Shown: positions 30,692-63,070 of the stretch, one piece after another
Numbering within the stretch: position 1 is the first letter of the stretch
Layout: the number at the start of each line of letters is the position of its first letter
From: an uncultured virus (IMG/VR IMGVR_UViG_2643221868_000001)
Taxonomy: Duplodnaviria > Heunggongvirae > Uroviricota > Caudoviricetes
IMG/VR virus record: IMGVR_UViG_2643221868_000001
Coordinates: 1-64,000 of that record
Strand: one strand, 5' to 3'
DNA: 64,000 nt
Program-made: the position numbers and the translations under genes
Notes under the pieces: model-generated
What the model was told of the DNA's origin: nothing
Database searches by the model: none
The model's input: the letters and a program-made list of their open reading frames with translations, nothing else

Positions 30692-30787
30692 TTAGACGAC
30701 GGTGGTGAGCTGGCCCTGGACGAAAGCCGCCGGGCGGTAGACGGCGAGCGCGAGGCGCTCCTCGGCGCGAATGGTGATCATGTTCTT
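30692..30787 (-). pseudogene. Helper major capsid gene, C-terminal segment (aa 414-444)
   Basis: Translates KNMITIRAEERLALAVYRPAAFVQGQLTTVV*, a typical HK97 capsid C-terminus. Confidence 0.9.
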
Positions 30788-30798
30788 TGGCTGAGAAA

Positions 30799-30835
30799 TA
30801 TCAACGACTTAGCGGCCTATGGGCGCGCTATGGGA
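30799..30835. promoter_or_regulatory. IHF-consensus site and integrase arm repeats, Element 1 integrase end
   Basis: TATCAACGACTTA (30799-30811) matches WATCAANNNNTTR; ATGGG at 30819 and 30830 (11-bp spacing). Confidence 0.65.
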
Positions 30836-30853
30836 ACATGCCGTTTCGTTTTC

Positions 30854-32044
30854 TCAGGGAGTGAGGAGCAGTTCCAGCTTCGGTGCGGCCAAAAGTTCTG
30901 CTGCCATCACCTCGAAAGCGTCGGTTCGGCGATGCCCTCCGACGATAGGGTGGGCGTAAATTTGAAGCGTCACGTCGAACTTCTGGTGTCCCATGAGCGA
31001 GGCCGCATCGGGAAGCGGGCACCCGTTGTGAATCCACCAACTCGCGGCGAAGTGACGAAGTGCGTGGAAGTGAAGTTGGTCGCCCTGACGATCCAGGCCA
31101 GCGCGCTTCAAGAGCGCCTGCCAATAGTGGACGTTGAAGGCAGACCACATGATCATGCGGCCGTTCTCGCCCCGAAAGACGAGATCGCGGTCGTTCTCGA
31201 CGAAGCAGTCGTCCAGCCACCGGCTAAGGAGGGCGCGGACGTGGCTCGGCATCGGGACATCCCGCTCCCCCGATTTGGTCTTCGGCCCCTTCAGTATGTC
31301 AAAGGGTGTGAGGCTATGTCGGACCTCAATGACCCCCGCCTGGAAGTTGATGCGCGACCGCTTCAGGCCCATGATTTCGCCAAGGCGCAGACCACAGAAC
31401 GCCGCGAGGTGGACCGCGCATTGCAGCATCCGATGGGTTCGGGCGTGCTGCCATTTCGCTCGGGTCTCGACCGTGGCGATTAGAGCCTGAACCTGCGGAA
31501 GGGTGAATGTGCGGATCGGGTCGGATTTGACGCTGCCGATCTCTTTCAGCGCATCTGCGACCGGGTTCACGGCGAGGTACTTCCGCTTGATGGCGAAGGC
31601 GCACATGAGCTTGAACTCAAGCACGCGCCCTTTGGCCGTTGCTGGCTTCAAGCGGCGCTCTCTAACCAGCTTCGCATACCAGTCCTCAACATCGACCGGC
31701 GTCACCTGATCCATCCGACGCTTGGCGAAATATGGAAGGACTGAGCAGCGCGCTGCGACGCCCAGGTTCTTCAAGCGTCCATGGCTGATCCGACCATCCC
31801 TCTGCCGATCCTCCATCACCCTCAGATATTCATCGGCGATTTGCTGGACCGTCCTGGGGACTAGCTTCGGCCGATGGATGCCCTCCACTTTGTCCGTCTC
31901 TACACGAGCCTTGAAAGCCTTCGCATCCTTCTGCTTGGCAAAGGTCTCAGACTCCTGCTTGTCTCCGTCCCGATACCTGACGCGCCATCCGACCTTTTTC
32001 TCTCCCTTCGCCGTGACCCATTCCCGCTTCTCAATGCTCGCCAT
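30854..32044 (-). CDS. int: Tyrosine recombinase / integrase (Element 1)
   Basis: CGLRLGEI, PKTKSG, HFHALRH, MGH and YAH catalytic residues; start MASIEK. Confidence 0.95.
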   Translation of the reverse strand: MASIEKREWVTAKGEKKVGWRVRYRDGDKQESETFAKQKDAKAFKARVETDKVEGIHRPKLVPRTVQQIADEYLRVMEDRQRDGRISHGRLKNLGVAARCSVLPYFAKRRMDQVTPVDVEDWYAKLVRERRLKPATAKGRVLEFKLMCAFAIKRKYLAVNPVADALKEIGSVKSDPIRTFTLPQVQALIATVETRAKWQHARTHRMLQCAVHLAAFCGLRLGEIMGLKRSRINFQAGVIEVRHSLTPFDILKGPKTKSGERDVPMPSHVRALLSRWLDDCFVENDRDLVFRGENGRMIMWSAFNVHYWQALLKRAGLDRQGDQLHFHALRHFAASWWIHNGCPLPDAASLMGHQKFDVTLQIYAHPIVGGHRRTDAFEVMAAELLAAPKLELLLTP

Positions 32045-32045
32045 G

Positions 32046-32200
32046 TCAGAGGTCTCCTCGGGTCGAAGGGGAAGCGCCGTGCGGCACAGCGGTATAGCTG
32101 ACGTCCATCGCGGCCTGCCGACCCGTGGCCCACAACTCCGGCACGATAGGAAGTCGGAGCGCAAACCAGAGTGAGCCGGCGGAGCGACCTTCGTTGTTTC
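32046..32200 (-). pseudogene. C-terminal remnant of an antirepressor gene
   Basis: AGSLWFALRLPIVPELWATGRQAAMDVSYTAVPHGASPSTRGDL matches the C-terminus of 48138..48731; N-terminal domain absent. Confidence 0.75.
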
Positions 32201-32437
32201 GCCCGCCCTCCGACCCCTCACGACGCATCCCCCGCGAAGAAGATTTCTTGAGTCCAGCATCCACAGTGGCACGTTTGGTTGGGACACTCTGATAGCTCGC
32301 AGCCGGGCTCACAGCCGCACTACGCGGCCGGCTGTGGGTTTGGAAAGACATGATCCCGGGTTCTCTGGGGCTCGAACCGGCTTCTCACGGCCGGTGGCTC
32401 CCTCGCCGGGGAACCAATGCCAGCGGACGACACTGGC

Positions 32438-61298: not shown

Positions 61299-61426
61299 GG
61301 CGTGCCGTTCCGGCCGCCGGGGTGAACCGGAGTCGCGAGAGTGCTCATGATGTGGGATCCTTGGGGGCGACCGGCCGTACCGCACGGCGAGTGGCCCAAA
61401 GGGCTGAAACCGATGCTTTGGAGCGC

Positions 61427-61660
61427 TTAGCGCACGCCGATGGTCGGCCGGCTCACCGGTGGCGCTGCCGTTCGAGCCGCCGTGGTCTTCGCATGTCGCG
61501 CCAGGATCGCGCCTTGTGCGGCCTCAAGCGAGCCGTGGAAGCCTACCCGGGTACCGTCTGACATGCGCCCCGCCCAGGAATTGCGGCCGAGCTCGAAGGC
61601 CCGCCCGACCACCGCATCGCCAGCGTAGACGGGGACGAACGGAGAGGAAGGCTTAGCCAC
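61427..61660 (-). CDS. Small conserved satellite protein
   Basis: Homologous to 46037..46267. Confidence 0.6.
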   Translation of the reverse strand: MAKPSSPFVPVYAGDAVVGRAFELGRNSWAGRMSDGTRVGFHGSLEAAQGAILARHAKTTAARTAAPPVSRPTIGVR

Positions 61661-61856
61661 GGTTCGGCCGCGTCGCTTCGGCGCGAGAGCGCATTTCGTC
61701 GTTGATTGCCGACCTGAGAGCACAGACGGTTCGGCCCAACTTGAACGATGGAATGAGCTTCTGAGCCACCCGGTGCTTGGCCTGCCCTCTGGTGATCCCT
61801 AGGTGCGCGGCGATGGCCTCAAGGCCGTAGAGTGTGTCTGCAGGTTCTATCTTCAT
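61653..61856 (-). CDS. Excisionase / AlpA-like HTH protein (Element 2)
   Basis: LYGLEAIAAHLGIT..IPSFKLGRTVCALRS; first gene inside the att end. Confidence 0.75.
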   Translation of the reverse strand: MKIEPADTLYGLEAIAAHLGITRGQAKHRVAQKLIPSFKLGRTVCALRSAINDEMRSRAEATRPNRG

Positions 61857-61867
61857 GGCTCGCCCTC

Positions 61868-61920
61868 ATGCGCAAATCGTGCGTAAAACATGCGCAACTG
61901 CCGCGCCGGCCATGCGCAGA
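61868..61920. repeat. Integrase arm-type repeats, Element 2 xis end
   Basis: RTGCGYA units at 61868, 61879, 61890 and 61912, matching 46908 and 46919. Confidence 0.65.
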
Positions 61921-62041
61921 CTTCATTGTCTTTTCAGGCACTTACCCAGCCATAGCCGGCCATCGTCAGCTGCATAGAAAAAGCCGCCAAAAGGCGGCTA
62001 AATCCTTGCTCTATATGAGCTTTTACCAGAAGGATGCTGAC

Positions 62042-63070
62042 ACGGGCCCAGTCTGTGTCGTTCAGGACGATACCGGTGGACGGGTAGAGAGCCAGCGTTG
62101 CCTGAAGGATGGCGAGGCGCAGGCGGTCGATCGGGGTTTCCGCGGTCGGCGTGAACGGCGCAGCATAGGCCGAGGCCTGCGGGATGATGCCGGTCAGGTT
62201 CTGGCCGGTGCCGTTGCCGTAGAGGATCTGCGCCTCCTCGACGAATTCGAGGCCGTAGCGTGCGCGGCCGTCGATGTAGGAGACCAGACCGGGGGCATCG
62301 TCGAGCAGCTGGCGCGAACCCTTGAAGATGTGGGCCAGCGTGCGGACGGGCGCCGACTTCAGGTCGAACGTCAGCTCGGACTGAGGCTTGCGGGCACCCT
62401 CGGCCACCATCGCCGCGGCGTTGGTGAAGCCGGTCTCCACCGGGTACTCGATGTTGTTCGACGAGGTCTGACCGGGGGTGATCAGGTCACGAACACGCAG
62501 CGGTCGATCCGGCAGGTTCACGATACCCTGGCGATCGGTGACGACGAGCGACGAGCTCGGAGAGACGCCGGTGCCGAGGGTGGCCGGGGCCGTCATGATG
62601 TTCTTCGTCTCGACGGTCGCGCGGATCTGGCCGCGATACTGCGAGCCCTGCTCCTTCACGCCCTTGAAGCCCTCGCTGTCGGCGAAGTGCTGACCGAGGC
62701 TCTTCGTCTCGGAGTTGCCGGGCCCCCCGCGACGAGCGCCCTTCTGCTCGACATCCGCGAGACGCGCGTCGAACTCGGAGACCTTGGCGTTCATCTCGGT
62801 GATGGCCTTGTCGGCCGCCGCCTTGGTCTCCTCGGTCATCTTGCCGAGGCTCTTCATTTCGCCCTCGGCCTTCTCGGCGAAGCGCTTCACCTCGTTGGTG
62901 GCCGCCTTGAGCCCGCCAGCGAGAGCCTTGAACTCGGCGTCGCCGGCGCCGCCCTGGGAGCCAGCGGCGGCTGCAGCGCCGCTGTCGGGCGGGGCGAGGT
63001 GGATGCGCGGGCCGATCTGGCACGCGAAGAGAACGGCCGCCGAAGCGCCGATGGAGGTCATGCGGGTCAT
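62042..63070 (-). pseudogene. Helper major capsid gene, N-terminal segment (aa 1-343), interrupted
   Basis: HK97 capsid motifs up to GIVLNDTDWAR, then 35 unrelated residues read from Element 2. Confidence 0.92.

Follow-up and report, generated by a model that had tools for sequence, protein, structure and literature searches.

Interruption of a gene by an element whose precise excision restores it, or regulated gene integrity, is known from skin/sigK and the Listeria comK prophage. It is discussed as a set of exceptions in the paper that describes the helper-embedded phage-inducible chromosomal islands, or HE-PICIs (Tommasini, Mageeney, Williams 2023, PMC10111431). Their type element, Eco567.11capE (11capE) of E. 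coli NRG857c, interrupts an E. coli prophage in its lambda-type capsid gene and brings a capsid gene of its own. The same paper reports 491 further HE-PICIs at 14 late-gene sites, all in Enterobacterales and with integrases of one clade, as well as one helper with two HE-PICIs, in different late genes; the concept of helper embedding is thus not new, having been published with HE-PICIs in 2023. Phage-inducible chromosomal islands of the kind that forms capsids (cf-PICIs), whose core components are listed in de Sousa et al. 2023 (PMC10085698; see also 10.1101/2025.02.11.637232), are described at chromosomal sites, not within helper genes. Here we describe a window of 64,000 nt (bases 1-64000 of the 87,768-nt provirus record IMGVR_UViG_2643221868_000001 of IMG/VR), in which the HK97-type major capsid gene of a helper prophage, on the minus strand, is divided into three pieces by two elements, satellites A and B. 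Like the examples of regulated gene integrity, each is an integrase-bearing element that disrupts a gene uncompensated and whose precise excision would restore it; unlike in them, what is interrupted is a gene of another mobile element, the helper phage, and two elements must leave. Our reading, to which we give a probability of roughly 0.8, is that A and B are two related, hetero-specific satellites with their own integrases, each placed in its own core of the helper capsid gene, and that they form a helper-satellite system with this prophage.

A helper capsid gene in three pieces

Minus-strand translations bear out, at every coordinate, an initial annotation made from the sequence alone, which had placed the helper capsid gene in three pieces. 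The translation of 63070..62042 ends in NDTDWAR and runs on into 35 foreign codons and a stop, that of 46872..46637 reads DWARIELTKD..FVKNMIT, and that of 30787..30692 reads KNMITIRAEE..TTVV before its stop codon. A search with the first 343 capsid residues returned 1158 proteins at E ≤ 0.001 (8000 candidates scored), the named relatives belonging to Methylorubrum and Methylobacterium; the best full-length relative (P0004, 444 aa, 89% identity) is not interrupted. Aligned separately to P0004 by BLASTP, the pieces cover residues 1-343, 340-419 and 414-444, colinear and gapless, with 88-100% identity over the matching stretches and no loss or gain of residues, as a check proposed in the annotation required. 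The overlaps between the aligned pieces consist only of residues encoded by direct repeats. Arithmetic on the coordinates alone gives 1028+225+82 = 1335 nt, or 444 codons and a stop, in agreement with the earlier claim that joining at the cores keeps the frame and yields 444 aa.

The direct repeats announced at the junctions (46862/62043 and 30774/46637) are present: CGGGCCCA (8 bp) bounds satellite B and GTGATCATGTTCTT (14 bp) bounds satellite A, each in two copies and nowhere else on either strand of the whole record. An 8-mer is not by itself rare by chance; what counts is its exact position at the frame break. The cores fall on codons W-A-R 341-343 for satellite B and K-N-M-I-T 414-418 for satellite A, ~220 bp apart within one gene. 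Both lie on strongly conserved residues, D340 being retained by 118 of 119 capsid homologues and W341 and N415 by 117 each. Neither element brings a replacement 3' end, as had been stated, yet each holds a complete capsid paralogue, and the HK97-type capsid family PF05065 is matched by the helper pieces and by both satellite capsids. As the annotation had claimed, and as follows directly from the sequence, the capsid gene is restorable in frame only if both satellites leave.

Contigs of four public sequencing runs, of which X1 is the probable source run, were aligned to window positions 44001-64000, a range that includes the right junction of A. In X2, from another organism and another study, a 36,811-nt contig with ~7% differences covers 46633-46870 and continues at 62052-64000, and its loose end before 46633 matches window positions 30741-30770 by manual comparison, indicating that both sites are empty and the capsid gene uninterrupted in the X2 prophage. 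A 751-nt contig of X3, from a further organism, connects 46864 to 62046, leaving the site of B empty. In X1 itself, a junction contig joins 46861 to 62043 (its shorter side being 22 nt plus the 8-nt core) and restores the site of B; in X1, X2 and X3 the contigs skip exactly 15,181 nt, the unit length of this satellite. Neighbouring X1 contigs start or end exactly at 46862, 46869, 62043 and 62050, the pattern that would be expected in a 31-mer graph if attL, attR, attB and attP of B coexist; an attP contig of B was not among the X1 contigs listed. Satellite B appears to be mobile, with its site restored in part of the source culture. Among the X1 contigs, a restored junction, which the annotation had named as a check, was found for B, and at the right junction of A the contig is unbroken with no restored form.

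Gene content of the satellites and their helper

The two elements (Table 1) are oriented like the capsid gene, with most of their genes on the same strand as it. Their integrases, IntA and IntB, are 41% identical to each other and contain the PF00589 catalytic domain (93 and 73 bits; cutoff 27.1), the real start of IntA probably being M82 of a 477-aa open reading frame (ORF). The replicon types differ, a primase/helicase in A and a replication initiator in B. Together with the separate repeats, these differences agree with the earlier view of two independent integrative satellites, and that of independent insertions is further supported by the empty sites in two other organisms and by related elements at the same capsid codons (see below).

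Table 1. Features of the split capsid gene and of satellites A and B, listed in the direction of capsid transcription (window positions)
Feature	Positions	Strand	Evidence or remark
Helper prohead protease	63091..64000	-	to 64008 on contig
Helper major capsid piece 1	62043..63070	-	aa 1-343, end ..DWAR; translation, BLASTP, Pfam PF05065
Core repeat of B, copy beside capsid piece 1	62043..62050		CGGGCCCA; X1 junction contig and contig ends fall exactly here
Satellite B	46870..62042	-	unit of 15,181 bp with one core copy
Terminator-like hairpin, B	61982..61999	-	~43 nt inside upstream end
Xis/AlpA-like helix-turn-helix (HTH) protein, first gene of B	61653..61856	-	phrog_18541, E 2e-4
Replication initiator of B, phage O/DnaD-like	60324..61385	-	HTH_36; phrog_270 replication initiation, E 5e-38
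HNH endonuclease of B	58265..58579	-	
Cargo of B without match	57739-58221		between HNH and cos-like block; opposite orientation, low GC
cos-like block of B	57568..57640	-	blastn to helper contig 68042-68095
Major capsid gene of B, HK97-type	55488..56705	-	405 aa, complete; Pfam Phage_capsid E 4e-51
Cargo of B: BrnT-like toxin overlapping HTH antitoxin-like gene	51043..51773	+	
Integrase B, tyrosine recombinase, last gene	46937..48136	-	3' end 67 nt from junction
Core repeat of B, copy beside capsid piece 2	46862..46869		CGGGCCCA
Helper capsid piece 2	46637..46869	-	aa 340-419; translation, BLASTP
Core repeat of A, copy beside capsid piece 2	46637..46650		GTGATCATGTTCTT
Satellite A	30788..46636	-	unit of 15,863 bp with one core copy
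Terminator-like hairpin, A	46578..46592	-	~45 nt inside upstream end
Xis/AlpA-like HTH protein, first gene of A	46248..46475	-	75 aa; weak HTH_17; phrog_18541, phrog_66 excisionase/regulator
Primase/helicase of A (replication module)	43294..45135	-	AAA_25; primase/helicase PHROGs
HNH endonuclease of A	41252..41566	-	85% DNA identity to that of B; related to helper HNH at contig 68172-68510
Cargo of A, trypsin-like	40488-41228		weak LmuA/PDC-M35A matches; opposite orientation, low GC
cos-like block of A	40290..40363	-	syntenic with helper block between HNH and terS
Candidate small-terminase-like ORF of A	39781..40209	-	142 aa; Atlas feature match, lead only
Prohead protease of A (S78)	38430..39125	-	
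Major capsid gene of A, HK97-type	37162..38433	-	423 aa, complete; Pfam Phage_capsid E 1e-48
Cargo of A: AAA_15 ATPase of AriA/OLD/GajA type	34693..36606	+	
Integrase A, tyrosine recombinase, last gene	30854..32044	-	3' end 66 nt from junction
Core repeat of A, copy beside capsid piece 3	30774..30787		GTGATCATGTTCTT
Helper capsid piece 3	30692..30787	-	aa 414-444 and stop; translation, BLASTP

The satellite capsid genes share 86% DNA identity, and their products are ~50% identical to the helper capsid, with a shorter N-terminal region (satellite capsids begin at profile positions 36-58, helper capsids at 5-16). The positions that match both att cores have diverged in these genes, so that the satellites find no target in their own genes. 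Genes for a small endonuclease and for a homologue of the helper gene 3' of the helper capsid also occur in A. B contains a P22_AR_N/Bro-like gene and paralogues of three helper tail-tip genes; its stretch 53077-54504 holds diverged copies (~70-71% DNA identity) of the helper tail-tip genes at 19649-20758, and the N-terminal part of the J-like gene is copied there too. By gene content both elements are satellites, having their own integration and replication, a putative helper-like packaging signal and no full virion set. HMM (hidden Markov model) scans of the whole record found portal and large terminase (TerL) only in the helper, with no match inside A or B, and Pfam and PHROG searches of the element ORFs gave neither a head-tail adaptor or connector nor a complete tail. 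No recognisable protease or small terminase (TerS) was found among the ORFs of B by Pfam, PHROG and Atlas comparisons, and the 97-aa ORF that follows its cos-like block matched no family.

The putative packaging signal is a block common to helper, A and B, which is probably a cos region. By blastn, the block downstream of the HNH gene of B matches the helper between HNH and terS (86% over 56 nt, E 8e-9), and a three-way alignment of the cos-like blocks contains 51 invariant columns. Both satellites share a cargo slot between HNH and this block. The candidate TerS-like ORF of A has an Atlas score of 0.94 (196/256 features), its clusters carrying Hendrixvirinae_terminase_S/Terminase_4. The AAA_15 ATPase of A, which matches AriA (PARIS), OLD, AbiLi and GajA models, lies within a stretch of 41-52% GC against 63% overall; from this composition and these matches it is probably recently acquired defence cargo, and no partner gene was identified for it. 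Rfam at the gathering threshold detected no RNA family in the window.

The helper is an HK97-like cos-type prophage of a Methylobacterium/Methylorubrum-type host. Upstream of its capsid gene stand, in HK97 order, prohead protease, portal, TerL, a TerS-like gene and HNH (portal, TerL, TerS, cos region and HNH at contig positions 64155-68510), and downstream of it a head-tail adaptor, tail genes, a presumed tape-measure gene of 1213 aa and a J-like protein. Every helper head or tail ORF inspected is long and uninterrupted. The portal (584 aa, contig 64155-65909, minus strand) has a C-terminal extension that weakly matches PBECR3, a barnase/EndoU/colicin-like nuclease domain, at E 2.7e-6, below the Pfam cutoff. 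CheckV estimates the completeness of the record at 92%. Its last ORF (contig 87367-87765) resembles an excisionase/AlpA-type HTH protein, and the helper integrase may lie just beyond the record end.

Relation to known satellites and targets of the integrase clade

Comparison with the type element of the HE-PICIs (NC_017634: 1199095-1211197, L085) shows shared behaviour and separate descent. Like HE-PICIs as described in PMC10111431, A and B are joined to the helper gene by a short identity block without replacement sequence, and, as with the type element, the gene split is that of the major capsid and the element's own capsid gene is diverged at the att site; in both groups the integrase clade repeatedly targets terminase, portal, protease and capsid genes. 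The integrases themselves are distant, with 22% identity to that of 11capE for IntB (32 bits, E 2e-5) and for IntA (22 bits, E 0.02); against the 400-bit cutoff given in that paper, membership of the HE-PICI/fis-PICI integrase clade was rejected. Nor do A and B follow the HE-PICI zone order, given there as Integration (int, alpA), Bro, Replication and Late: 11capE begins with the integrase gene and an HTH regulator (alpA) aiming inward, whereas A and B begin with the Xis-like gene and end with an outward-facing int. The doubled HE-PICI motif TGTATTGC is absent near the att sites; its one match in the 64 kb falls within a helper tail gene, at 13872. A and B further differ from the HE-PICIs described in their alphaproteobacterial relatives, in a helper head module of HK97 rather than lambdoid type, in carrying HNH and a cos-like block, and in occupying, as a pair, two sites of a single gene that lie 220 bp from each other, a case not seen in the passages of PMC10111431 consulted. 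With three defining HE-PICI features lacking, A and B work like HE-PICIs yet stand outside that family. RefSeq labels the two capsid halves around 11capE merely as "incomplete" pseudogenes, and standard annotation hides embedded satellites such as this one.

In size and content A and B resemble the cf-PICIs as described in the sources above (~14-15 kb, integrase, regulator, primase/replicase, HNH, TerS, protease and own HK97-type capsid, with use of helper tails), but unlike them lack TerL, portal, and head-tail adaptor or connector, B also lacking a recognisable protease and TerS. In the absence of TerL and portal, cf-PICI membership was rejected.

IntB has many relatives at ~38-46% identity, and those with a name all come from Alphaproteobacteria (Terrihabitans, Azospirillum, Sphingomonas, Xanthobacter, Methylobacterium, Novacetimonas); close ones include P0123 (92% identity), P0124 (72%) and P0125 (70%). 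A scan of genome contigs with IntB returned only three cyanobacterial integrases at 25% identity, and one of metagenome contigs gave no match. Scanning IMG/VR with an integrase alignment yielded 79 loci, of which 41 (L004-L044; 32-44% identity over nearly the whole integrase) entered the target analysis, the 38 loci of lower identity (L045-L082) appearing only in six-frame HMM scans. Targets were assigned with HMMs built from helper proteins, capsid matches and E. coli lambda-type head proteins, and with Pfam on the frame after the integrase. At 23 of the 41 loci, the integrase is immediately followed, in the same orientation, by what is clearly only the 3' part of a head or packaging gene: GpA terminase (L008, L011, L012, L015, L022, L038), lambda-type portal (L009, L017, L018, L027, L040), HK97-type capsid (L024, L036, L043), PF04860 portal (L030, L035, L041), HK97-type TerL (L029, L032), ClpP protease (L006, L007), HNH (L034) and DUF6260 (L023). 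Of the other loci, three (L019, L020, L026) are borderline cases, eight (L004, L005, L010, L021, L025, L031, L033, L039) show a nearly complete head gene no more than ~550 nt downstream, and the remaining seven have no assigned target. The pairs L011/L012, L017/L018 and L019/L020 consist of near-duplicates. The split gene is represented by both of its halves in L029, L030, L036, L041 and L043, and probably in L038. The integrases form a large alphaproteobacterial clade, members of which are found repeatedly in the head and packaging genes of phages. Assignment to tRNA-targeting integrases was rejected, with no tRNA gene in the window by Aragorn or next to the integrase at any of the 41 loci.

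The capsid codons occupied by A (K-N-M/L-x-T) are also used by L036 (repeat AACATGCTGAC) and L043 (repeat CTTTACAC), each of these elements having a protease, a capsid and an integrase of its own. In seven of the eight elements whose upstream junction could be placed (five of six loci, with A and B), a terminator-like hairpin is found 30-60 nt inside the upstream end. Double occupancy of one gene looks rare: no second case was seen in the 10 largest related provirus records, each of which has one clade integrase or one tandem pair. The record of L026 (G002) has, at 48886-51199 in the middle of an 87-kb provirus, two clade integrase genes head to tail and 14 nt apart, which may represent a tandem or nested satellite pair. 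At L035:768-4428, the element upstream of the portal 3' fragment apparently includes a full HNH and a full TerL gene; some clade members may carry more of the head module and stand closer to cf-PICIs. Near-copies of TTGCGCAA cluster near the satellite ends (46518-46536, 46908-46915, 61868-61897), and the junctions in L041 and L043 are flanked by exact copies; the window as a whole shows no enrichment of the motif (16 matches, ~28 expected).

With an integrase 22% identical to that of HE-PICIs and placed at the opposite end of the element, and with its clade found in head genes at 23 of 41 loci, A and B therefore belong to an independent alphaproteobacterial lineage of helper-embedded, capsid-carrying satellites, doubled here in one gene.

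Proposed cycle, competing explanations and meaning

In the helper-satellite system that we favour, induction of the helper would lead each integrase, with the Xis-like protein, to excise its satellite, which would replicate from its own replicon. The satellite capsid protein, with the protease of A or that of the helper, would assemble on the helper portal, probably into small heads (15-16 kb, as against at least ~57 kb for the record without satellites). Helper terminase, satellite HNH and the TerS-like protein of A would package DNA from the satellite cos-like site, and the particles would take helper tails. Helper capsid synthesis would be postponed until both satellites are out. Helper late transcripts may be halted by the upstream hairpin before they reach into an integrated satellite; in the circular element, this hairpin may also act as terminator for the outward-facing integrase gene. 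Dependence of helper head production on two excisions, as proposed in the initial annotation, would follow from the split gene, and the satellite capsid proteins might or might not substitute. The accompanying argument, that the extra 31 kb should prevent packaging of the unexcised helper, is plausible but incomplete, the composite holding three co-oriented cos-like sites.

Several observations weigh against this interpretation. No excised A was found among the X1 contigs, contig 44001-46869 running unbroken through 46637-46650, although contigs drop rare variants and absence from them is no proof. No helper integrase is present in the 87.8-kb record. The X1 junction contig is short, and its depth, 69 against 194-221 for its neighbours, does not give a fraction of cells; another copy of the prophage with the same ~50 nt could conceivably account for this contig, but would not explain the breaks at the ends of B. 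The cos function of the common block is read from its position and similarity, and the TerS-like ORF of A has neither a PHROG match nor BLASTP similarity to the helper TerS. The satellite capsids could in principle serve the helper, weakening the need for both excisions. A quick integrase tree is star-like and does not group IntA next to the integrases of L036 and L043, which use the same site.

A more ambitious reading, which is possible but which we would sooner doubt than assert, extends the system to an alphaproteobacterial superfamily with at least eight target families, independent of HE-PICIs, whose members would share the outward terminal integrase, the upstream hairpin and an N-terminally shortened capsid of their own. 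The capsid gene would then act as an AND gate, in which B leaves readily, A holds the gene closed and helper heads are licensed only after both have gone and have secured small capsids of their own on the portal and terminase of the helper.

The first two of the observations above, the undetected excision of A and the missing helper integrase, would also suit a decaying prophage in which ordinary islands have entered a gene no longer under selection and no functional helper-satellite relation exists. This explanation is unlikely: the helper head and tail ORFs inspected are long and uninterrupted, the three capsid pieces remain open and 88-100% identical to the intact relative, B appeared mobile in the source culture, and the cos-like block of both satellites matches that of the helper. 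The presence of the clade in head genes at 23 or more of the 41 loci argues for tropism rather than accident.

Two independent breaks in one essential capsid gene could alternatively mean that the elements mainly benefit the host, by blocking heads and carrying defence cargo, with restoration rare or irrelevant. The AriA/OLD/GajA-like ATPase and the BrnT-type toxin-antitoxin pair would agree with such prophage silencing, as would upstream hairpins that could be polar on the downstream helper late genes. We consider it quite improbable as the main account, given that B apparently excises, that exact in-frame restorability is kept at both sites, and that the elements have kept a capsid gene, HNH, cos-like site and replicon of their own, equipment of use only for packaging and transfer; silencing and a satellite life are not mutually exclusive. 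A chimera, in which mis-joined contigs of related prophages and satellites produced the three-piece gene, was rejected as barely credible: source-run contigs do break at both junctions of B, and the 85-86% identical capsid and HNH segments of A and B can confuse assemblers, but the breaks coincide exactly with the ends of the 8-bp core, which fits integrated and excised forms existing together and does not fit repeat collapse, the right junction of A lies within one unbroken X1 contig (44001-46869), the truncated capsid protein has been recorded within an 821,756-nt contig, and the target-site repeats, exact colinearity and empty sites elsewhere fit real integration.

In the literature covered, helper embedding is described only for Enterobacterales and one integrase clade, and no account of it was found for Methylobacterium or of alphaproteobacterial capsid-gene satellites, though the HE-PICI supplements may list more. 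The helper-satellite system described here has an unrelated integrase clade and an inverted element layout, and is directed at the same target classes (terminase, portal, protease, capsid) in Alphaproteobacteria, an argument for convergent evolution of control over helper late genes in cis. It also suggests that a large group escapes satellite finders tuned to enteric models. Double occupancy offers a natural system for studying how two satellites share or compete for one helper, and raises the question of whether the order of excision matters; whether a satellite capsid with a shortened N-terminal domain sets a smaller head on a borrowed portal is likewise open to study. Given the partial excision in the source run, the system is probably active and can be tested in a culturable, non-pathogenic host.

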